A stretch of 63,094 nt of DNA, filler included, from Sluysia triapertura (Eukaryota): the NCBI GenBank assembly GCA_046118255.1. It is 5 parts of 5 records of this genome, joined end to end, with 100 filler letters (N's around TTAATTAATTAA, not from the genome) between each part and the next. Parts side by side here need not be neighbours in the genome. Positions count along the whole stretch, not along the records: positions 46,695 to 63,094 come from JBJNIA010204927.1; 4 more parts are not named here. One strand, written 5' to 3'. The notes under the pieces are model-generated. The model did not search any database. It saw nothing but the letters and a program-made list of their open reading frames with translations, and was not told the DNA's origin. Made by a program: the position numbers and the translations under genes. Positions 39,260 to 59,100 of this stretch are shown here, piece by piece (the first letter of the stretch is position 1; the number at the start of each line of letters is the position of its first letter).

Positions 39260-39448
39260 TGTTAGACTTCGTAAAATGGACTGACTGGGGATCGAACCCA
39301 GGACCATTGTCTGCGCAGTCCGACTGCTCTACCACTGAGCTATCAGCCCCGTCTAACAATTTCATTTTTAATATATTCAACTATACTACTTGGCACTTTT
39401 TAGGCCTTTTACCCCAACACTATCATTATTCTAAATGGTACCTCAACA
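39260..39448 (-). mobile_element. tRNA-core element, copy 3 (best preserved; core 39277-39349)
   Basis: Reverse complement GGGCTGA-TA-GCTC AGTGGTA GAGC..CTGGG TTCGATC CCCAG-TCAGTCC-A has intact acceptor, D and T arms and A/B boxes, but a poorly paired anticodon arm. It is bounded by TGTTG(A/G)GGTA and GTCTAACA. Confidence 0.8.
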
Positions 39449-41956: not shown

Positions 41957-42112
41957 TATTAGACTTCGTAAAATTGACTGACCAGGGATCGAACCAGAGA
42001 CCTCTAACTGCAGTGTTCGATGCTGTACCACTGAGCTATCAGCCCCGTCTAACAATTTTATATTATTATATACAAATACACTAAATGGCACTTTAGGCCT
42101 TTTACCCCAACA
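41957..42112 (-). mobile_element. tRNA-core element, copy 4
   Basis: tattagacttcgtaaaa..ccactgagctatcagccccgtctaacaat..tggcactttaggccttttaccccaaca. Confidence 0.8.
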
Positions 42113-43177
42113 ATATTATTGTAAACATTGTTGTTATTTTTGAGATCTAGTCATTTTTATTATTGTATTTGATTTTGTAATTATTAAATTATTGTGCTGC
42201 TATTAATATAAAAAAATATTAAAATAAAAGAAATGTGATAATTTATACTTGATCTAGTGAATATTGAAATTACTGAGATTCTATTTAAACAAAGTGAACT
42301 GATATTGATTTATTGTTATTAATAATTTCAAAGTCGCAACAGATACATCACACAAATAATATGTGAATTTCAAATAAAACTAGAAATATTTGAAATACAA
42401 CATTAATGTCACAAGCAAAAGCCAAACTAAAACCGAAACTTCCATTATAAAAACATGCTATAAACATTATAGTTTTTTATCTAAACATTAAATGAAAAAA
42501 TCGTTAAAAATCAATAATTTTTAATCCAATTAAAAGTTACATACACATACAATACTTATATATATGATTAGTAATTTAAGTCTTTATAAAAATCAATTAT
42601 AAAATCAAAGTATAATATATAATATATAAGTACAATAATATATAAAAAAGATAACAAACAAAAATACATAAACACAAAAATTCCCCCGCGCCCGCAACCT
42701 TACACCGATTAGAATTAAAAAAACCGCTTAGAAAAATATTTATAAATCCACATAATATCTATATTGATTTTGATTAATGTGAAATAATAATGATGATGAT
42801 ATTCGACAATAGATAAATATTACTTTCCTAATGAAACGCGCGCTAACAAACCAAAATGAAAAATAGCACACATTTTTTAAAAATAAAACAACGTTAAATG
42901 AAACATTAAAACAAATCGAAAATAAATTAATAATAATAATAAACCGAAAAAACAAATAAAAATAAAAACCCTAGCTTACATTTCTAAATTGATTTGATGA
43001 AGCACGCAATTAAAAATAAAATTTAAATATTACATATTTTTTGCGAAAAAAGTCGAATAAAAAATTCAAAACAAATATTGTAAACATCTGTTCTTCTACC
43101 GGAAATAAAACAAACATTATGCTCAATAGTTTGAAACAAAATTCATTACGTTTATATCAGGTCATGTATATCGGATG

Positions 43178-44921: not shown

Positions 44922-45897
44922 CTAGAAAAATAAAATAATTTAAATAAACTGACAATTGATAAAATAAAATATTTATATTTAGAACTACAATTTTGTTTTA
45001 GCTAATCACGACTATGTTCCAACTTGTAACAAATCAGATTTCCTCAAAATGGAGGTTGTTAATATGATTTTACAGTGTTTTGCTAACTTGCAATGAATAA
45101 TAATATTATATTATAATAATAATAAATGTAGGATTAAATAAATTATGTAGAAAAGAATTTAAAATTGAATACAGCTTAAAAATGTTCGTATCATTACCAC
45201 ATACAACACAAACAACGATCAAAGTACCATCCAAAAAGCACCATTATTACACACCGAGCATAAGAAAAAATACTGTTTCAACCGATGACAGAGAAAGAAT
45301 GATCCAAAAAACACTTGAAGTATATATTCTACGGTAATATACGGTAAACCATACCAAAAGGCTAGATTTATTAGTGTCTCTGTACACTCTTGATTCACTT
45401 TTGTTAATATTTGCTCTTTCATTTCGAGCATAAGTTTAGATCTTCTATCACCTCCACATTTTCCCGGTGTACTATTGGATATCTTTTACCAGAAAATGCT
45501 TGGTTACATGAACAGATGTTATAATGGGGAAGTTTTATATTTTAAGTTGATTTTAACTTAAATTCTTTTTATATAATTTATTCAATTATTTAATTGAACT
45601 AAGCTTATATAATAATTCTGACAATAAATCAGTCGATATACGGTTTTTGTTGAATGGCCAGTCGAAGCTTCTAATTATAATTGTTTATAAATTTTAAATA
45701 GTAGTAACGATTTTCGAAGTCATGCTTCGTCGTCAGTGTGATCCTTTCCAAATTAATTAATATTAAAATATTCAATTTAATTTCAAAATAAAATAAATTT
45801 TCTATATTTATCGTGGATTATATACACATTACAGGATTCAATAGAAATATTTTCGTGTAGTCTGTGGTTATTAATATGATTTTCGACAAAGTTAATT

Positions 45898-46491
45898 TTA
45901 TGAGCATCAGTAAGTGGAGATTTAGCATGAATTCAGCCTCACAACTATTTTTTAATATTCTTCATACTGTTGTTTTATTGTAGTTTAGCTCTAAATCTGA
46001 CATTATGAGTTGTAGACAACGTTGTATTTTTCGCATACATTATTAAACTCCTTTTCTGGCGATTAGAAAGTACCCCATTGTTATTTATAACTATTATCCA
46101 AATAATTGGATATCGCATGTCTTGATCTGTTAAAACTTTTGGCAATACTTGCATTACTTTCCCTTTTTTGAGTTAAATAATATAATAGATGCCTGGAAAG
46201 ACTGAAATAAAAAATGTAAATACATTGATTAATTCGATGACAAAAAGGTGTGTAGGAGTATTGAAAATACTCAGGAATATCATTAGAATACTAATTTTGT
46301 ACAATATGTTTTATAGTCTCTTAAATAAAAAGTTTGTATAATGCGTATAATTTATTTGTAAAATTGGAAACTATAAATAAGTAATAGTTTATTCGTATTT
46401 TATTTATTAAATAGTATTGTTAATTTGTTATAAATTGTGTTTGTATATATAGCAAAAATAGGAGGTTGTCATATACTTTTGAAACAGGGTG
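45898..46491. mobile_element. Rearranged copy of the Tc3-like element at 3619-4867
   Basis: 45900-46145 is the reverse complement of ~3833-4076, while 46188-46345 is direct to ~4541-4690. It ends in the TIR ..tatacttttgaaacagggtg. Confidence 0.85.
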
Positions 46492-46594: not shown

Positions 46595-46694
46595 NNNNNN
46601 NNNNNNNNNNNNNNNNNNNNNNNNNNNNNNNNNNNNNNTTAATTAATTAANNNNNNNNNNNNNNNNNNNNNNNNNNNNNNNNNNNNNNNNNNNN
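46595..46694. other. Artificial contig spacer
   Basis: 44N-TTAATTAATTAA-44N. Confidence 0.99.
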
Positions 46695-47221
46695 TATGAA
46701 TTAAGAGATTGTGACTTATTTAAATTATAATATGTTTATGTGAGGTGTAAGGGATGTTTCTGCTGTGTATGCTACCAGTTAAGTTAGGCAGGACACTACA
46801 GTCAATACTTGGAAATTCCAGCATACGTAACAATGAGAGAACAATTACAGGACGCATGGAAGCGAGCAGGTCTTCAAAGTAAATACACACACGATAAGAC
46901 AGCAAAAGAACATACATTTAAAATATGTGACGAAATACTTATAGACTATCCAATATCCAATCTCCGAAATTAAAGGGCCACATCTAATAACGAGAGTTAC
47001 AGATACAAATGTGCTCGTTAAAGATCCTAATAAAATTAACTCTGAAACTTTTGAGCGCACGTCAACAGATGCAAGATTGCACCAAAAGAGTAATATAATC
47101 TAAGAAACAGAAAAGTACAAAAATCGAGATTGAAAGTTAAGCCGATGCACTACGACATAAACAAGTAATATTTATAATACAACCTCATAGAGATGACTTA
47201 ACTCACATAATGCAAAATGTA

Positions 47222-47523
47222 CGATTTAATGGGCAGTGGGTTAGAGCAATTATGGATACCGATGCTACTATATCAGTATTTCATAAAAACTTTATAAATC
47301 GATAAATTTATAAATTTATAAATCGACCAAGAACAGTAACATATAGCTTAAATCAAACTCCAATTAACATCAGCGGAACAGTACTATGTACATAGAAATA
47401 TTAGGACAATATGTGCATATTTTAGTAAATGTTTGGGACAGCAGTCCATATGAAGACATGGTCATTCACAGCAAATATGGTTTCATAAAAGTACCACCGG
47501 GATCAAATATAATTATACCGTAA
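47222..47523 (+). pseudogene. Retropepsin (LTR-element aspartic protease) remnant
   Basis: FNGQWVRAIMDTDATISVFH (D-T-G-A motif with G to D), then INISGTV..ILGQYV..SPYE; contains stops and frameshifts. Confidence 0.7.
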
Positions 47524-47582
47524 TTAATAGTTCCCTATAGTTGGCGATGAACTAACAGTATATCAAATGCCAATTTCAAATC

Positions 47583-48683
47583 CGTCCTTACAGTTCCAGA
47601 ATTACCATTACATCTACACTCAATTTGTCAGATGTATCATGGGGATCGCCACCAGCAATTACATCGGAAGAAAGTTCGGACTCATCAGGAATTGGTTCCG
47701 AAGTTCAAGGCACAATAATGATAATGGCTAATGAGAATAGTTTCCATAGGAATTGTTTTAAGAAAATAATTTATTGCTTATATGAATTAATTAAGTTTTT
47801 CCTATCACTAATAACCAACACTATAGCGACAGAAACAGATGAAGAATACAAGAATATGAACATCGCTATAAATCATGACAGAGAACGGAAAATAATGATC
47901 ACCGATATTTACAAACAATATTGGAAATTCGAATTTGTTTCTAAGAAAATGATTTTGCAACATGAGTTTGAGATTTATTGTATTTATTTAAAGCCGTTAC
48001 ATCATATAGACGGCAATCCACATTGTTTACATTATGGTTATAGGCCAATGCTAATATCTTTCTCTTTGGAATATGATTCTCAGAATGCCTCGAAGACTAT
48101 TTTAATACGATATAAAATAAGAACTAAGCCATTTATTTTTCAACAATCACCGACATATTATATTAGGACTAAATTGTATGTTTCTCGGCAATCGTGAACG
48201 TTAATAGAATCTCCAATGACCACTTATCGTTACCTCGGAAATGTCGTACGTATCCATAATCGATTGTACAATAACACATTATTAATTGCTTACGAACTAA
48301 TTGACGGTTTACGTTACGGAATGATATTGCCTAACGATACTATCCGCTTATATCATATTCCGAAAAATGTTTATCAAATTTTGGATATTAAGAGAAACAG
48401 AATTACATAGTTCAAATGGATTTTGGAAAAAATATCAGATATCATGATGTGCAAGTACCAATCAGAGAAATACGAAAATGACTCGGACACGGAATCAGAA
48501 AAAAGTTTAAGATCAATAACAACTTTGCGAATGTCTTATAATATGAACACGAATATAAGTTCAATCGCTACAAATATAAGTATGAGTTTAAGTAGGGAAA
48601 ATATTGAATGTCCAGCCATAATGAAATCTAACAATAATTTTATCATAACTATTAATTACATCTTAATAATAATTCTCTCGTAA
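47583..48683 (+). pseudogene. One ~365-codon orphan reading frame broken by two stop codons
   Basis: ORFs 47625, 48216 and 48423 are in the same frame, separated only by TGA 48195-48197 and TAG 48408-48410. Confidence 0.6.
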
Positions 48684-49024
48684 CGTTAATAATCAACTTT
48701 ATTATCCCAAAATTCTACTTATTAATTAGGTATAGAGCCCATTTTTCATATAAATTTTAACACATATTATATGCAATAGTTCTGCCATTCAGTGTGGGTC
48801 ATATGTGATATTAAAATCACGAGGATTAATATAAAAATAGTAAGGATTGTGTAATTGACTGTATGTGATGGTTTACCATACATTTTGAGTCATACACTAA
48901 CGTAAACTATACATTTATTCTTAAGTTTTAGGATTTTTAAGCTTTAAAATTTTTAATTTACATTACTAGTATTACGGAATTATTTATTATCTTATTATAT
49001 ATTTTTTATTTTTAGTACAAATTT

Positions 49025-49360
49025 ATGTCTTATTCAACCTGTGCTATCTGCCTTAGATCAATTCGGAATTACTACGCCAGAACATCACCATGCTTCCACC
49101 GTTTTCATTTTTCCTGTTTGTACAATCTCTTTAATACGTCCTTATCACCCTTACCTTATTGTCCTTTGTGTAGGGCTAATATTGTTGAACGTGTTATCTA
49201 TTTCAAACGTGTATTTCATAGGTCTATTTACCGTGTATTTACCATAAAGTACATAACTAGTCCTTCTGAAGAACCAGGTACTGACATTTACCAGCCTACT
49301 GCAAATAAAATAAAAAGAAATCTTAGTAAAAAGGATGGGTTAGGCCTCCTCCAATCATGA
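49025..49360 (+). CDS. RING-H2 (C3H2C3) zinc-finger protein, putative E3 ligase
   Basis: CAIC-x13-CFH-x2-H-x2-C-x14-CPLCR. A basic tail (QKRNRRRRQLK) in another frame runs to 49500. Confidence 0.85.
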   Translation: MSYSTCAICLRSIRNYYARTSPCFHRFHFSCLYNLFNTSLSPLPYCPLCRANIVERVIYFKRVFHRSIYRVFTIKYITSPSEEPGTDIYQPTANKIKRNLSKKDGLGLLQS

Positions 49361-49679
49361 TTCCGAACCTTACAAAATCTCAGAAGAGAAATAGGCGTAG
49401 ACGCCAACTCAAACATTTTTACAAATTACAAGAAGCTAATAAAAATAATGTTTCTAAGATGATTAATCCATTCTTAAAGAAAAGGCAAACAATTACCTAA
49501 AATCGTATAATTTAAAAGTATATAAATAAAGAAAACTTTTGTAATTAATTAATTATTATCTAACTTTAGTTTTGAAGCTATTGTATCCTTTCACCTTATA
49601 CAATTTTATTTTATAAATTATCTATTACTTCAGTAACACGCAAACAAAAATCTTAAACCAAGAGTAAAATTTTTACGTA

Positions 49680-50791
49680 TATATTTGATGACACGAGAAC
49701 ATCACGCCTGCTTTTTTCCCTGATCTGTATCTACCCCTAACAGCTTAAAATCCGAATTGGACATTAATCTCGCCACACATATCTTTGCTCTTACTCCCGA
49801 TAAATCTCAAATCTCATTAAGTGGACTACCTAATTTTCCTGATACTACAAATCTTTATATGTAGTAGAGAACCGCGGTGTCATCGAACTGATCCTCCTCG
49901 ACAACGGCAATATTGTGATCGAAGCTGCGGAATATCCCAATTCGGAATATTTTCAATGCCAACTATAAACTACCAGTCTTTTCTGCCAAATTTTTATAAA
50001 CAAAATTCGTTTAATTTGGAACGATTGAACAATGGCGTTTCTTTCACACATGCCCATGTCCCCTTACGATGAAGATCGTTTGATTTTTGTGGCTTATTCT
50101 TACGCGTTTGATTTCTTAAACCGGCCACATATCATACAACTGTCTTGCGTTCGTTATTGCTAGCAATTCCATTCAGATACTAATATTAAGCCGCGTTTGC
50201 GAAAACTATGTCCGTGATATCCAAGGTTTCAAAGATACAGATATTCTCGAAGCAAAGGACATTGATGATATCCTTGTTTCATCATCAAAATGAGTCATTA
50301 ATTTGACCAACCATAATCTTTTGTCTTACACCACTACAAATCCTATTTTGCGGGGCCGTCAAACCTTTCGTCTTCTTTATCCAGTTCCGCCAAAAATGGC
50401 TTCTCCCGTATGGCCTTTGAACTCATTTTACTTCTTGACTTAATCAGAACGAAGGACACTTCATTTATTTCTAATTGTTCTCCTCCTCCTCTTTTTCTAA
50501 TGTTCTCGTGGCAACTAATACATCAATCAATGCTAAAACTTCATCAATCGGATTGTCATCCTTTACTAATCAACCATGTCAGAAACCTTCAGCGTTCTGA
50601 CCAGGTCGATCAGTGATTGAACTGCTCATCGCCAAACCCAAATCGTATTCAGCTAAACGAACAAGTCAAAAGGAGGATCATCATCATCCGCCATCTCGTT
50701 CTTCTGTTCGGACTGATTTTGCATAAAACGATGTGGACTTAGATGATATTGACTTGGATGATATCGATTTAGACGACAATGATTTTTGTTA
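49680..50791 (+). pseudogene. Decayed member of an unknown protein family ('ORF-X'), with an acidic C-terminus
   Basis: NLTNHNLLSYTTTNPILRGRQTFRLLY / SRMAFELILLLDLIRTKDTSFIS, homologous to 52330-54390(-); ends DDVDLDDIDLDDIDLDDNDFC*. Confidence 0.65.
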
Positions 50792-50806
50792 ATTTTTTTG
50801 AGATTC

Positions 50807-51558
50807 GGGACAAATATTCCCTGATGGGGAAGTAATTGTAAATAATATTAATGTCAATATCAATATTTATGATAATTGTAAATAATATGTATTAAATTAA
50901 TATCTATGTATTAAAAATATAAAAACGTTTGTAAATAAGTATTTTAATAATAATATTTGTAAATAAAATTTAATCATTGTATTTTAATTAGAAAAAAATA
51001 ATATTTAACATAATTTAATATTTTTGTATAAAGTACCGAAATTCATAAATCTGACTCACATTTTTATGCTTATTTTTACATTTATTTTATCTATCTAGAA
51101 AATATTTATGCTTATTTTATGATTTAAAAATAATTTATTGAAAATTCATTGAAATTTTCATGATTAATTATTAATTTATAATTTTATAATTTACAAAAAC
51201 TTATATTTGTGTTGAAATAAAAAGAGATAAAGAAGGTCGGAGACACAAGTGATATATTGATTACGAATTACTGGAAAACATTGTACTAACTCGGTTATTT
51301 TTATCTGTGTCGGTGTTATACCGTGTGATCTAAATTACGAAATTGAAGAGGATTGATTTGGAAATTATTCGATAAAAAATATCGTACAAGGATTCACCAC
51401 AAATATTCAATTTATTTATTATATGTAAAAACAAAGTAAGCTAATATTTATTAAGATTACGCTTCAATAGGTAGCGTCAAAATCTTACTTAAAATCTCAA
51501 TATTTTAAATCCAAGTATTATACCTGGATTAACTTATTACTAAAATCATCCTACAACA
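50807..51558 (+). mobile_element. Putative polypurine tract plus 3' LTR (TGTAAATA from 50837; end uncertain)
   Basis: gggacaaatattccctgatggggaagtaat-TGT directly after ORF-X; candidate end ..catcctacaaca. Confidence 0.5.
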
Positions 51559-51802
51559 ATAAAGAAGTTAATTCTTTAAGTATAACGTTTTATCATTGTT
51601 ATTATAATATCTTATTTGTGTTTTATATTGTTGATAATTGTGTTACACTTTTGTACGGAATAAATTTAATTATTTTGAATTTGTTATTATTGTCGTTAAA
51701 ATACTAAAGTTTCAAGATTTTTTGATTAAAGTTGTAATTATAATTGATAATAACTTTTAAATTAATTATATAAGAATTTCCCGTTGAAATAAATAAAAAC
51801 AT

Positions 51803-52148
51803 TGTAGGAAGTCTCCAGTTAGAATAATAAAATTTACGATTAGTATATAAAAACTTTCTGTTTAAATCGAAATTACTTAAGTCGCAGTGTAAACCTTATA
51901 AAAGCATTTAGCTTAAGTCAAAAGATTGTAGGAGTATATTTTGCAAGAAAACTCTACGCTGCTTAATAAACATAAGGTGTATTGATTTTTAGGAAAAAAC
52001 TGTTATATTGTTAAGGGAACTTTGATTGTCAAATTCTATAGCTATGTCTACTACAGACGAACCTGTTTAATTTCATAATTGTTTACAAGATAAAATAAAA
52101 TCTTAACAACCTCAACAAATATTTCCCCGCACAGGAAGATTTGTTCCT
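51803..52148 (-). mobile_element. Putative polypurine tract plus 3' LTR of the oppositely oriented element (TGTTGAGG at 52117 to ..TTCCTACA at 51803)
   Basis: Reverse complement aggaacaaatcttcctgtgcggggaaatatt-TGT, homologous to the junction at 50807-50839. Confidence 0.5.
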
Positions 52149-52329
52149 ACAAATCAATAGTAATAAAAACTTAAAAAATGTAGAATAGCAAATATATGTA
52201 ATACAAAATTACTATATAAATATATAAAATATCAGGATAAAAAATTAAAACGTAAAACATAATAAACAAAAACTATAAAAATATGAAAGCCCTATTGATC
52301 AAGAATGTTGATAAATTATAATATTACTA

Positions 52330-54385
52330 ATCAGCATAATATATCATTTGAGTCAATGGTTCTGGGGAGCTGCAGGCGTAGGAGTCGATGTAAAGTTGAT
52401 CTATAATTGTGTATATGAACAGTTAGATTGATAAACAGCAGATTCAGCAGACATCGAATCACTGTAGTGTCATATTGGGATGACTGTTGGACCAAATAGA
52501 TTGGGATGTGGCAAAGAACTCGAAGAGAGCAATGAAGGATCCTTACTTTTTAAGAAATCAAACAAGACAACTAATTCAGAGGCTAATCTAATGGTGTTAA
52601 AAAGCGACAGAGAGAAATACAGAAGTTTCAGAATCTGTCGCGCTCGAGCCAGAATGTCCATGATAGGCAATGATAACAAATTGTGGTTTTTAAGATTTAA
52701 CAGTGAGATTAGGATTTAAAGAAAGCAAGTTTTGGTAAGGGTTTATGATTTGAAAAGAGTTTATTATAATTAAAATGGATTGAATTAAAGTTTATAAAAT
52801 TATCATTTATATCATGTATATACTTCATAGAACCTATTCTTATTTGATAAAAAGTTCCTTTACAATAAGAGATAATTCTTATGAAATCTTTACTTATATT
52901 ATTAGCAACATTTTTATTGTAAGTGAAACACTTATGAATTCCACAAAATTTGACTTTAAATAAATTATATAAAAGGCTCAACAACATATAAGTATATTCT
53001 AAACTTTTATTAAATGTAAAAGCTAAGATTATTATATTTGATAGTGTATCCTGATGTACCCCAATCCGCCGCGCTCCAAAAGAATCATCTTTCTAATTTC
53101 TCGTTTATGAACCTTGAATTTAATTTGTTTTTCTAAAAGATAAATTTTGTACAACTTTGGAGATTGTGGAGGTGAACACGTAATTTTAGGACTAGATTTA
53201 ATTTTTGATATCGATTGTGTCTTTAAGATAATTCTAAGCATACAGATGATCTAATTGTAAGAAGATTTACTTACTAAATATACATCATGATTAGAAATTA
53301 ATGGTACAATAATGGGATCACTAATAAGAACGACTTGATAAGTATTTATAACAGATATTAGAGTAAGATTAGCTAAACGATCCGTAATATTTTCTTTAGT
53401 TGTACTACTTCGAATATCAACTATACAGACGGCTTTATTTTGTTGATTTACTTTACTCGATTTAACTGAATAAATCAAATCATACAAACTATTAGACACA
53501 ACACTCTGCTGAATCGCATAAGTGACTCGAACCAAACTAAACTTTAATTTATTAATTTTAGGATCCTCCTTTACTAAAAATAACGGTAATTCTAAACCGG
53601 ACTCTTTAAAAATTACAGGTAAAACAATAAGGTCTATTAAGAATTTTATTTGTACACGATATATTATTAGATAATTTTGTGATCTTAAATCAATTACATT
53701 TATTGATTTAATTTCGTTCAATACTTTTAAAGATTTTGTTCTATACAATAAAGCTAAATCGTATAACTTTAAGCTTAAAATGGGTACTAGACGTTTACAA
53801 ATCTTGAAATAATACTTAATAATGAATATGACGAATTAACAACAGCATTATCATAAATAATTCTCAGTTGTTGCCATTATTCATTCGTTGATGAAGACTC
53901 AATCGTAATATCATCATTTTCATTCGGATAAAATCCTACTAATAACTTTAAGATTTTATTATCTTGTGAAAATTCGTTCCATGACAACTCTGTAATAGGA
54001 CTAACAATTTGAAATTAATCATGAAGAAATTTCCTATATTTATCAATTAACTTTGAATTGCAAACATTAATGATTCGACTGGATTCATTTTCTGTATTAT
54101 TTTTGTCATCTGCATCGATAAAATTATCATAACTAGGCCGACAAGGACAATGAATACCAATGTTTAATAATAAACTTGTTTGTGTTTGCTTGTAATTTAG
54201 TTTTATTTCAGATAATTTTTTAATTGAAAGATCGTTATTTCTATTATGTTCCAGTTATTCGATACGAGTTTTTCTTAAATCTCTCATCTGTTCGACGTTA
54301 ACACGAATATCCGAATTGTCACTGTAGACACGACGAAAATTTGAAGTTTTCGTTTTGCAACATTGTCCGCATACAAAAAGATACT
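52330..54385 (-). pseudogene. Long (~680 codon) decayed ORF-X family gene
   Basis: Near-continuous minus-strand reading (ORFs 53251, 53032, 52709 and 52470, plus 53800-54380 with scattered TAA stops). It includes NLKNHNLLSLPIMDILARARQILKLLY..IRLASELVVLFDFLKSKDPSLLS. Confidence 0.65.
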
Positions 54386-54451
54386 AATAAAAATAATGAT
54401 TTTTATTTTGTAAAAAATTACTTTCTTTCAGATGATGACCAGTGATTAGTT

Positions 54452-54599
54452 ATCCAACCAGAATTCTCTATCTGTAAAGTATTAAACTTCATTCTGGTTG
54501 GATGGCCAGTAATATGCATGGAATTGGCAAACTAACTGTAGTGAGTGATTAGCCATCATCAGTGTTGACCGTGATGAAGAATGTCAACACTGGTTATGG
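54452..54599 (-). other. Twin-hairpin element, copy B
   Basis: atccaaccagaat (54452-54464) / attctggttggat (54491-54503), and ccatcatcagtgttgac (54553-54569) / gtcaacactggttatgg (54583-54599). Confidence 0.85.
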
Positions 54600-56467
54600 T
54601 AGTAACAATTTATAATGCTTGAAAATAATTACTGAATTTTTATGTGATTAAAATGATAACTTGATAATCATAATAACAATAACAATATTGCTATTATTAT
54701 TATTAACGAAAAAAGAAAAATGCATAAACCTCTTATCTTTTACTTATACAAGATCTTTCTGTGGTTTTCTTCAATTTTTAAACATATTTTAAATATATTC
54801 TAATAAATTTAATTGTACTTAAACTAAAAATCTTTGTGTAAAAGTTTTTATGGTTATTAATTTACATAAATTGCTGAATTCTTTAAAGCTATACACGATC
54901 TTCCTTTTGAAACTAATAATCTTTGAGTACAGAATAGTTTGAATGAATTTATATGTGTGATTAACGTTTTAAGGTATGATAGTATTTCTTATGCAATGCA
55001 GAGAAATGCAGAACACTAGAATGAACTTTTAGATATTGACTTATGTCTTTGTGTGAGAGTAATATTTGAATATTGGAAGATCGTGATTAAAAGACCTATT
55101 GAGAAGAGTGTAATTTGGTAAACGTGAAAAGGTAAACTATAATACAATTCTTGGTATATTTGAAATATTATTGTGCAATGTATTATGTGATTTGTTTATT
55201 TGTTGTTTTTGAATGGTATTGTATTGTGTTGTTGGTGACGATGCAATGACATATGCTGAATTTAGGTGTTGTAATTGATTCGAAGGTGTAAAGTAGATAA
55301 TTTCAAATGAGGATATTATTTAGTTATTATGGATTTCGAGTTACATGTTTTTGATAGATTTGTCGGTGTAAGTTGATGGTATTAGATGTAACTGTGGTTT
55401 GTATATTATGAGATTGCGAATATGGCTTAGTTTAGGCAAATGAACTGTTTTGTAAGTGTGTAGGAGGTAAGTGTGTGAATATCAAAGTGTTGAAGGTTTA
55501 ATTAATTATAAAGGTTATCCACTACACAAGTAAATACTGACGAGTTTTATTTCCTTTGAACTCAATAAGTTTCCTTCCGACAACTCATGAATATCCTTCA
55601 AGAAATTACGGATCCTTATTCTAAGACGTATGCGAAATTCCGTATGAAACGGTCAAGAATAAGGCATACAAACCATTTGAATGATATGCGGTTTGTCCCT
55701 CACATCAATGGCATGATAAAGGCGACGAAGATGAGCTTCTCTTCGTCCTTGTATGGAGAGTTTTTCTATGTTTATCATTTCAATATTAAGAAAATTTTTG
55801 ATAATGTTGATATTAACTATTTGTAGGTTAACTCTTTCCTTAAAATAATCAACAGTTAACTCAGGAATAATGCCTTTAACAAGATTTATAAAATTTAATC
55901 CAAACAATATAACTAAATTAACGAATGTTGTTATATTTATCAAAAAACAACCAAAATAAAATAAAAGTTGAAATAATAGGAGTAAACGTACGAATCAGAA
56001 TATACGTAAATACGGAGATATTCAGAAATTTTGAAATTAGCTACCTTTAAACTGAATATTACGAATGTCATTTGTACTAGGAAAAGTGCATAAGTAATAA
56101 GCGTTTGTACGAAGTTAAATTTTGGTAGATTATGTGTTACAACGTCAGTGATACATGAATTTTGACAGATACTGATCACATATCGTAGATCACCACTGTT
56201 ATTGAAATATGAATGTAAAATATTATTGTGGTTTTCAATGACTATAAAATAACTTAATAACTAATATAAATAGCGCAGATTGACGAATATCATTATAACG
56301 AATAAGTAGCAGAAATAATAAGAAATATATGCATAAAGATGAACATAGACACATACAAAGAGAAACAGCAAAACAAACATTATAACAATAGATATAAACA
56401 ATGTAACGACAATAGTTATCATAACAACAATCAGAATTATCGTCACGATAATGTCTATTATTATTGT

Positions 56468-56468
56468 G

Positions 56469-56524
<56 letters not shown>
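56468..56524. repeat. (AAT)n microsatellite
   Basis: Directly visible. Confidence 0.95.
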
Positions 56525-56525
<1 letters not shown>

Positions 56526-59100
56526 GTAAAATTATAGTGAGTATAAATTATTATGACTGTGTGTTTTGAATATATCAAGTAATCTATCAAATAAATATAT
56601 CAAATAAATAAATATTTTATTTATGTATGAAGTGTTGATTTGTGATGAAATGTTTGTGATATGTTGATTTAGAGTTCACGACAAAGGGGGCTCATGAGAA
56701 TAGGACATTCCAGGGGATACAGATTGAGCTGGCTCCGAAAAAAGAAGAGCAATAGAGCAATGAAACTCCTGCGCCTCAATGACTACTTTACAATTCCGAT
56801 GCAATTTTGTTAGGTACATAGAAGACAGCGAGTAAACTCTCTACAATCAGCTAAACTTTACACACAGAGTCAAAAGTACGATCTGTAAAGCATTACCGAT
56901 GATTAGCATTTTTTCTGAAAGTATGAGTCGATTAGTTTGCTCTGAGTACACAAATAACTTGGAAAGCAGGCGAGGTTAACTTCAAAAGTTGCAAATTGAT
57001 CGATATTCGTATAAAACATATGAATTTGAGGATTGTTCGTATCTATGTTATGAATTTGGTAATGATAATAGATTATTGTATTTATAAATTAAATTACATT
57101 TTTTGTTAACGGGAATATTTTATTACCATCGTAGTTAAATTACATTATAAAATTAATCATACCAAACTTATAAGTTAAACATTTGTACAAAACATTTAGA
57201 AACAACTTTAAAGAAATTTTATTATGATTAGTAGACACAAAACTATAATACGAGCCATTTATATTAACTAATACATCCTGAACATATTGGGAAAATATAA
57301 TTATTAGACACAGAAGAAAAATCACAATAGAAAACTAGAATAAAATATAAAAGATTAGAATAACATACCTTATGAGTCAGTGCTCATCTTTATATTAATT
57401 AAACGTAGTTCCCGTTTAACTTGTACACAATCTCTTTTGTGAAATCATTGTTTAATAAGTCACTGTATGTTACGATCATCGGTGTACCATGAAACGCAAT
57501 ATTGACAGTAACATGGGCGTAAAAATGAATTACTAAAAACATTATTGTTACTTCAGGATTAGTTCGAACACTTATATTATCTCTTTGTAGTCTAAGTAAA
57601 TAAACAATTGTTAATTTGTCCTGTTGGAGAAACAAAAGTATTGAACTTGTGGATTTACAAAATGTAATCTAAAACCATTTAACTCGATTTTTGAAATTTC
57701 GATATTATAATTATTTCTAAAAATATACTAAACTATGATCATAATGAAATTATTATGAATTAGAGATCAAATTGCTCAATGTATCAATACTTTGATGTAA
57801 CAAGGCTTCAGTGTTAATTTCAAATACTTCAAGAATTAAATCCAGCTTTAATTTCAAAATACAGGCAGCTCTAGTATAATTGCTTGTTTTCGTGACAATT
57901 ATCAATAATTTGTTTTGTTACAGAAACATGCAAATTTTTCTCAGTGTTGCGCCTTTCCAAAGCTTCAAGTCGAATTCGATGTTCAAAACAAATTAAAAAA
58001 TCAAAAAATTTTTTTACAATGAGCGTTTGAAATAATACTAGATACTGTAAAATTATTAAGATGGGTACTAAATAAAGCCACTTTTGAATATACAGCTTGA
58101 GGATTTATGAATTATCGAATTGATCAGGATTTGAATGACATTGTTGTAAAAAGTTATGATTCAGAAAATTTACTTAATCCAGAAAATTGAATTAGAAATA
58201 AGCATTAAATGAACTAATGCTCTGAAATATCAAATAGTACTTCACACTTTGTTTGTAGAACTTGTTAATTGATCTGTTAGATAAAAAAAGTTAGATAGGA
58301 AGTTAAGGAGATGTGAAAATGAATGAGAAAGAGTTATAAAAGAAAGTTAGTGGAATTGAAGGTGTTTAATGGAAAGTTCATTTAGTTTTATTTTTATATT
58401 TTAAAATGTAAGTTTAGTAAATTTTGATGTGATTTATATGTTGTGGTGGTCAACCTCTCGTTAAAATTTAAATAATAATTCCAATTACATCATTACACTC
58501 ATTAACATTTTACATTATTACCTTTTCATAATTCACCAAATCCTTTTTTTATTGTACATTTTTTTAGATCCATTAAAACCATTTTTTATACTTCACAACA
58601 TTTTAAATTCACAATTTTAACACAATCATACTTACATTCAAAACCATCAATGTACACATAAAAATTCATTTATAACATTTTATTCATTATCCAATAACAT
58701 TAGAACCACAATTACATCTTAAATTATCATTGAAAACACGAAAATTAATTCAAAGCATTACAAATTTACGATCCTTCAACACTCAATCATTAACACCTTG
58801 AAAAAAATGTAACGCACACTTCAAAACCAATCTAAGCATTTTTATACAAATAAAATTTCAACTCATTTCATACGTAAGACAGAATATAAGCAAAAGAAAG
58901 TTTATGTTATTAAAGAGATTAAAAGAAATTAAGTTTATGCATTGTGATTTTATTTTCTTTATTTATATTATTATTAAGTATCATTATTTACTTTTATTAT
59001 TATTATTTTATCGCATATGTTATTATTATTGTTACTAGAATTAATTTTAGTGTAATAATTTTTTGTGTCTAAATGTTTGTTTAATGTAAAATTTTGTTTC

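Follow-up and report, generated by a model that had tools for sequence, protein, structure and literature searches.

Extra open reading frames (ORFs) of animal long terminal repeat (LTR) retrotransposons mostly code for envelope (env) proteins or captured enzymes. Planarian Burro elements are described as having RING, BIR, BCL2 and MATH cargo together with accessory ORFs (PMC6431247), the LTR retrotransposons Juno, Vesta and TelKA of bdelloid rotifers as carrying varied ORF3s (PMC5408684), and planarian gypsy-type elements as being held down by PIWI and prone to reactivation (PMC8532177). Here, we describe a protein family, called ORF-X, in a stretch of 63,094 nucleotides (nt) from Sluysia triapertura (assembly GCA_046118255.1), which is hereafter called the window and along which all positions are counted. 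Judged from its sequence, ORF-X is a real, constrained, unrecognised and decayed protein family, and we propose, with a probability of roughly 0.62, that it is an accessory gene in the 3′ region of Ty3/gypsy-type LTR retrotransposons, the soluble product of which probably acts on the host cell for the element. A conserved family that has no known relatives and holds the same place in elements only about 45% alike would point to an undescribed element-encoded function; if ORF-X is only passive cargo, it would be ordinary transposon debris.

Three copies of ORF-X and their codon patterns

The copies of ORF-X and the regions compared among them are as follows.

49688..50792 (+): ORF-X copy A, a span of about 365-368 codons with several stops and frame changes and an acidic tail at its end; start uncertain
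50270..50487 (+): helical core at the C-terminal end of A, with homology to B from tblastx, frameshift-aware alignment and codon-position identity
50059..50350 (+): middle of A, with homology to copy C
52330..54392 (-): copy B, a long broken ORF of about 687-690 codons; limits approximate
52509..52715 (-): C-terminal core of B, by tblastx and frameshift-aware alignment
53254..53835 (-): open stretch of 194 codons in B, two parts of which, about 91 residues apart, repeat each other
55439..55759 (-): aligned part of ORF-X copy C, in tandem with and upstream of B; its broken ORF probably spans about 56260-54630
54449-54504 and 54552-54600 (no strand): hairpin pair between C and B, from folding z-scores

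The two core peptides quoted in the original prediction are both present where it had placed them, at 50300-50470 (+) and 52530-52695 (-). In a tblastx comparison of 48900-50900 with 52100-54500, A and B are joined over two blocks, 50294-50380/52703-52617 (48% identity over 29 residues) and 50407-50487/52589-52509 (44% over 27), with a pairwise E of 1e-9 and otherwise nothing below E 0.16. Indeed, a frameshift-aware local alignment of 50270-50487 with 52715-52509 scored 105, against 39.8 ± 4.8 for codon shuffles, none of which (0/60) exceeded 57. Outside the core, the best A-B score upstream was 33 and was equalled by 41 of 60 shuffles, that downstream was 32 (20 of 60), and A's upstream region scored 38 against the far N-terminus of B, which 17 of 30 shuffles equalled.

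A third copy, C, had been overlooked. In a tblastx comparison of the regions upstream of both cores, A's middle matches 55715-55614 (-) at E 7e-7, and the alignment of A (50059-50350) with C (55759-55439) scores 129, with none of 26 shuffles as high (maximum 54). This alignment fixes the coding frame in A's middle, and the FCG of A, which had been paired with an FCG in B, is therefore out of frame relative to the frame conserved with C. A second claimed pairing, LERLNNGVSF/LERGGLGY, is not reproduced either, as the A-B alignment sets B's LERGG against A's ILLDNG instead of LERLNNG, while the third, YVRDIQ/YIHDIN, survives in part: YVRDIQ is aligned to C's FLKDIH, but its match to B's YIHDIN alone is not significant. 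The earlier notion of two divergent paralogues is thus correct in that the homologous family is real, but there are three copies, and they are not free-standing host paralogues. No fourth ORF-X copy was found in a small-profile scan of the window.

Some further features of these copies are recorded here. A stop codon occupies one aligned place in both A (50161, +) and C (55655, -), with different codons. The internal repeat of B (53751-53680 against 53478-53407) scores 64 with 0/2000 shuffles as high, its halves having been picked after the self-match was seen. The two hairpins between C and B have z-scores on the two strands of -3.5 and -3.7 (first) and -2.5 and -2.3 (second); Rfam gave no match at either and two chance-level small nucleolar RNA matches elsewhere. 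An env identity was the first idea for 54600-56000 and was abandoned once this region proved to be copy C.

Past purifying selection on the protein, as had been suggested, is supported by the codon patterns of both A-B and A-C. Over the 56 ungapped codons of A-B, identity at codon positions 1, 2 and 3 is 32, 42 and 18 (57, 75 and 32%; Fisher P 1e-5 for position 2 against 3), 15 of the 26 identical residues are encoded by different codons, and the proportions of synonymous and nonsynonymous differences (pS and pN) are 0.72 and 0.37, all in blocks chosen by protein likeness, which favours such a pattern. The coding frame has no stop over these blocks, against 3-11 in each of the other five frames. 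In the 34-codon block of A-C, the corresponding identities are 18, 23 and 12, and 8 of 14 identical residues have different codons. Synonymous sites are saturated between A and B, and hence no corrected ratio of nonsynonymous to synonymous rates is given for them; the A-B pattern is nonetheless one that, from the alignment, would not arise by neutral DNA divergence.

Stops and frame changes interrupt every one of the three copies, which the original prediction had not taken into account: the longest stop-free stretches of A, B and C are 99, 194 and 113 codons within spans of 368, 687 and 543 codons, respectively. A single public sequencing run, here called run X1, contains the stretch and is perhaps the assembly's own sample. 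Exact run X1 contigs repeat A's letters ungapped over 49496-49936, 49908-50323 and 50353-50846, so the breaks in A are not assembly errors; related contigs have small insertions or deletions inside A and B, and the breaks therefore differ between copies. Variant places in run X1 were tallied among those listed (40 of 1,265 and 40 of 265) and in clear-frame stretches only, with 49722, 49956-50161 and 50399 excluded as lying at breaks or in unclear frame. These variants are mostly neutral decay. In 49724-49861, all four of the listed places are third codon positions (4/4), which is a hint of constraint among close copies.

The main alternative is that ORF-X is a lineage-specific host gene, or a fragment of one, that was passively captured by mobile cassettes; the constraint would then come from the host gene, and the copies would since have been only decaying. 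We regard this as rather unlikely. The broken state of all copies is in its favour, as are an N-terminal half of B without detectable likeness to that of A, the hairpins preceding B, and the lack of codon bias at most variant places, whereas the four third-position variants in 49724-49861 speak against it.

End motif, putative LTRs and contig depth

The DNA that follows A and B has these features.

50807..50838 (+): end motif after A (20 conserved nt, then purines, with TGT at 50837), putatively a polypurine tract leading into a 3′ LTR
52116..52147 (-): end motif after B, in which TGTTGAG begins at 52117
50837..52117 (no strand): AT-rich spacer, read as two facing putative 3′ LTRs, with 19.5% and 23.4% G+C and multi-copy cover

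The DNA after A and that after B share some 33 nt, the last part of which is a run of purines followed by TGT; the TG stands 350 nt (A) and 392 nt (B) past the end of the core. When A's 33-mer was compared with both strands of the window (about 126,000 positions), the site after B was the top one at 23.5 bits, and the next reached 13.8; a GGGG purine run followed by TGT occurs at three sites in the window, two of which are these motifs. One window pattern was built from both motif copies, and its two matches are circular. The 31-33 related run X1 contigs differ at the same two places in the motif after A, and G+C falls from 38.8% over A to 19.5% immediately downstream. As a separate observation, the third GGGG purine run before TGT, at 42707-42675 (-), is alike to the motif at 16 of 33 places.

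The TGTTGAG of B matches the LTR 5′ consensus TGTTRNR, and the TGTAAAT of A matches 6 of 7 places of TGTNANR, both as given in PMC3601003. A purine tract followed by TG is indeed found after both A and B, with short runs and then 2-4 bases that are not purine-rich. Stems between the LTR start and the DNA upstream of the polypurine tract, whose role is described in PMC10886601, are noted in PMC3601003; both motifs fold as such stems, though no better than their shuffled versions (z 0.24 and -0.89). A literature search for the end motif gave nothing relevant among the 20 of 76 titles listed. The upstream half of the motif is presumably a typical gypsy motif of the kind that precedes the polypurine tract. 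If the end motif is a polypurine tract with the start of a 3′ LTR, as we infer, A and B would be the last genes of two related elements. Candidates for the inner LTR ends are many and include 51555 or 51647 (A) and 51597 (B). Also, one deep contig joins 57613 and 51588 via 21 other letters, which hints at a repeat boundary near 51588, and the word TGTAAATA, which we take to resemble a forkhead site, occurs four times in the first 130 nt past the end motif (50837-50965, +), of 11 occurrences on the plus strand of the window.

The ORF-X region is that of a dispersed multi-copy family: 7,111 run X1 contigs fall on 46700-58000, of which 5,188 are less than 95% alike, and 701 on 49600-52800. Summed contig depth, which comes from one run and is not a copy number, is 15-21 for exact contigs, 20-730 in the bins of A, 25-47 over the core of B and 1,500-2,800 over its N-terminal part, and 5,600-20,000 in the region of C, the deepest pile-up of the three copies. 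Within 49600-52800, it peaks at about 11,900 at the motif after A, and there is little agreement (0.64) among the loose contig ends directly behind the motif. What follows the motif is also repeated, both at A and at B (bins of 75-1,380; exact contigs 15-21). Depth and loose ends fit many LTR families with a common tract but different LTRs. One diverged contig has A's core, tail and motif in this order, and two others jump from inside ORF-X to the motif.

These observations also bear on two other explanations. The elements might be DNA transposons or non-autonomous cassettes, the motif being their terminal sequence and ORF-X being cargo or part of an unknown transposase system. A motif that is far more abundant than its neighbours and is followed by variable sequence would suit such elements, and neither reverse transcriptase nor a 5′ LTR was seen; on the other hand, the DNA after the motif is repeated at A and B and starts with TGT as LTRs do, and no inverted motif copy opens either element. 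We give little credence to this explanation. As for the passive capture of a host gene, copies that are only about 45% alike hold the same place before the same end motif, which argues against it.

Searches for relatives and the host setting

ORF-X had been called unrecognised and without a domain, and it has remained so: Pfam, PHROGs and NCBIfam gave no match above cut-off for the ORF-X pieces, and DUF6775, Cohesin_HEAT, HSM3_C and two unknown PHROGs were below cut-off and set aside. When 275 residues of B (53880-53056; query P0002) were searched in 5.8 billion proteins, none of 749 candidates was a relative; the core alignment was likewise found in none of 1,564 longer proteins of that search, and HMMER with P0002 over 1.84 billion representatives gave none. 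IMG/VR gave nothing for B, and a sequence search of PDB with ORF-X pieces gave no match; CFAP115 (PDB, E 0.009) was rejected, as it depends on three weak repeats, each non-significant alone. IMG/VR also gave a weak 30% match to a hydrophobic stretch (L002) and a single motif match in a 40-kb contig (L001), and scans of metagenome contigs for the motif found 0. A's middle and copy C were searched against the family libraries, PDB and IMG/VR only. The absence of a host gene match in these searches is a further point against passive capture.

The blank results in the large databases are weak, because innexin, a known family, was also missed by the word-based protein search: for the second of two innexin stretches in the window, it found 0 relatives among 190. 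The host lineage is therefore poorly covered. No description of ORF-X was found in the literature searched, though an orphan ORF is not findable by name, and Repbase may already annotate it.

Other candidate identities gained no support. Structure prediction, one of the checks proposed for ORF-X, was run, but the models were uninformative (predicted local distance difference test, pLDDT, 34.6), an 81-residue piece of the B core being one long helix (predicted template modelling score, pTM, 0.39). For 53254-53835, Atlas proposed the N-domain of PlsB (glycerol-3-phosphate acyltransferase) at 0.91 with 148 of 256 features, which was rejected with no Pfam match at E 1 and no PDB match at E 10; with the core, Atlas gave only unnamed clusters (0.82). 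In a hydrophobicity scan, neither A nor B had a strong membrane segment, and one of low complexity was picked up at 54736, close to the end of C; ORF-X has neither the Pfam env match nor the clear membrane anchor expected of an env fusion glycoprotein. The VAYSYAFD of A is, to our eye, reminiscent of the ExoII motif of DEDD exonucleases; Pfam, NCBIfam and PDB found no such enzyme on the ORF-X pieces, which are short and broken. Several further likenesses noticed by eye, to movement proteins, kinase subdomain IV, CARD, BH1, EF-hand and motifs of non-LTR reverse transcriptase, were unsupported by the scans.

Alternatively, the origin of ORF-X might be viral but not retroviral, either through genomic integration or through capture by a retroelement. 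LTR elements are known to capture viral genes (PMC5408684). However, P0002 had no match among the 1.84 billion representatives, ORF-X pieces had none in PHROGs and, apart from the one weak hydrophobic match, none in IMG/VR, and none of the scanned pieces showed a viral hallmark gene. Intron-less orphan genes beside a RING gene are common in large DNA viruses. Of the explanations considered here, a viral origin seems to us the least probable.

The rest of the window gives the setting. Its G+C is 20-30%, and it carries an innexin at 20288-21542 (+; two divergent open stretches, Pfam E 1e-13 and 1e-12), an ArfGAP piece at 11183-11875 (+; Pfam E 9e-11) and a P-loop helicase-like piece at 3163-3627 (-; Pfam scan), from which the host is taken to be an invertebrate animal. 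Among the public runs listed for the stretch, none was of RNA. Four N blocks of identical shape (44 N, 12 bases, 44 N) lie at 10795, 21800, 34784 and 46595. By eye, 56679-56840 (-) was called a MnmA/TRMU-like end, for which Pfam gave no match, and 12341-12667 (-) resembles the restriction-like endonuclease end of a non-LTR retrotransposon, also without a Pfam match. Related repeats occur at 45894-46490 and 3620-4867, the 46-kb copy appearing by eye to be a Tc1 transposase remnant (without a Pfam match). Furthermore, 10040-10451 is a tandem array of 15-, 30- and 60-nt units, the minus strand of which is open as an Asp/Lys/Tyr-rich repeat, and a transfer RNA-like unit with an odd anticodon loop lies within a dispersed repeat at 39277-39349 (-), to which repeats near 16940-17047, 17705-17857 and 41959-42120 are related.

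Neighbouring genes, proposed role and known elements

The following features lie upstream of A, together with a RING paralogue elsewhere in the window.

46788..47100 (+): piece like the C-terminal tail of a Ty3/gypsy integrase, by eye; cut upstream by the N block at 46595-46694
47141..47440 (+): broken aspartic-protease-like piece; Pfam Asp_protease_2 E 0.005 and gag-asp_proteas E 0.016, both below cut-off
47556..48680 (+): orphan ORF, nearly open, upstream of the RING gene
49016..49488 (+): RING-finger gene (Pfam zf-RING_2 E 3e-9) immediately before A; a frame change precedes its basic, arginine-rich tail
62499-61975 (-): broken RING paralogue with the same basic tail (score 176, 0/30 shuffles)

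No family match was found for 47556-48560 of the orphan ORF in Pfam, PHROGs or NCBIfam. The arginine-rich tail of the RING gene (49342-49488, +) bears a faint likeness to HIV Rev, with a sub-threshold match to Pfam REV at E 0.005; this likeness may be compositional. In other copies, joints link the modules upstream of A, namely, 46957 to 47747, 47941 to 48803 and 48923 to 49338.

In our proposal, two related gypsy-type elements would be arranged tail to tail, so that 50837-52117 contains both 3′ LTRs, one facing the other. Element 1 (+) would consist of the integrase-tail-like piece, the protease-like piece, the orphan ORF, the RING gene, ORF-X copy A and the motif, and element 2 (-) of copy C, the two hairpins, copy B and the motif, without a 5′ part; indeed, no 5′ LTR was found upstream of B. 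ORF-X would be copied along with the element by reverse transcription and be expressed from a separate or spliced RNA, like the rotifer ORF3s, and its product would be soluble and work beside the RING E3 ligase. From its position, its neighbour gene, the lack of membrane segments and the acidic tail of A, we tentatively suggest that ORF-X might be an intracellular regulator that raises transcription of the element or blunts host silencing. It is doubtful, and more speculative still, whether the elements form a flatworm-type gypsy lineage with a 3′ accessory region like that of complex retroviruses; besides hairpin RNAs, this region would encode another protease-like protein, an orphan protein, a RING ligase whose arginine-rich tail is Rev-like, and ORF-X as a new fold, duplicated and diversified across element families to counter the PIWI-interacting RNA system by anti-silencing or transactivation.

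Membership in Ty3/gypsy is likely from these sequence features but is short of demonstrated, because pol and paired LTRs were not seen. Several points weigh against the proposal. Reverse transcriptase, RNase H, the integrase core and gag were not detected in the pieces scanned, no relevant tool match was obtained for the integrase-tail reading of 46788-47100, and a protease-like piece after the integrase tail is an unusual order for gypsy. A self-blastn of the window did not find a second LTR copy, and copy C has no end motif after it. Direct comparison of B with C is not significant (17/23 shuffles as high), so that these two are related solely through A; the cores of A and B compared with C are not significant either (22/60 and 21/60, respectively). 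Among the places listed, variants at third codon positions in stretches other than 49724-49861 are 1/3, 1/7, 4/9, 2/7 and 1/1. Finally, no ORF-X follows the RING paralogue at 62 kb (6/15 shuffles as high), and a RING gene that also occurs without ORF-X would suit passive capture of a host gene.

An accessory gene of Ty3/gypsy-type elements, which we prefer, can be compared with known systems. Plant Ty3/gypsy elements such as Ogre, which PMC6431247 and PMC5408684 cite, also carry orphan extra ORFs with unknown functions, but their hosts are plants, and the likeness is one of description, not of sequence. Errantiviruses with env are similar in that, in most animals, a third ORF lies between pol and the 3′ LTR (PMC13524379). 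Those of flatworms, however, are described there with a gB-type env in the order gag-env-pol, whereas ORF-X lacks the env match and membrane anchor, as noted above.

Burro/GYPSM1, the giant gypsy-like elements of planarians, resemble the ORF-X region in being invertebrate and gypsy-type, in their many copies, in extra coding capacity with RING-type cargo and accessory ORFs, and in copies that are decayed in some species; their cargo, however, is placed in or upstream of the gag-pol polyprotein and has known domains (BIR, BCL2, MATH, ankyrin and env) (PMC6431247). In the ORF-X region, by contrast, the cargo is apparently 3′ and in separate ORFs, and ORF-X matches no Burro domain in Pfam, the two being compared by description only. 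The window has no counterpart of the giant ORF1 polyprotein of Burro, which combines gag, MATH, BCL2, BIR, env and pol. Juno, Vesta and TelKA, in turn, share with it a third ORF beyond gag and pol that is family-specific and not necessarily env. In these rotifer elements, ORF3 codes for env, GDSL esterase, DEDDy exonuclease, coiled-coil or transmembrane proteins (PMC5408684), and ORF-X matches none of these families; it differs from the rotifer elements also in that several genes stand in a row and ORF-X itself is tandemly duplicated.

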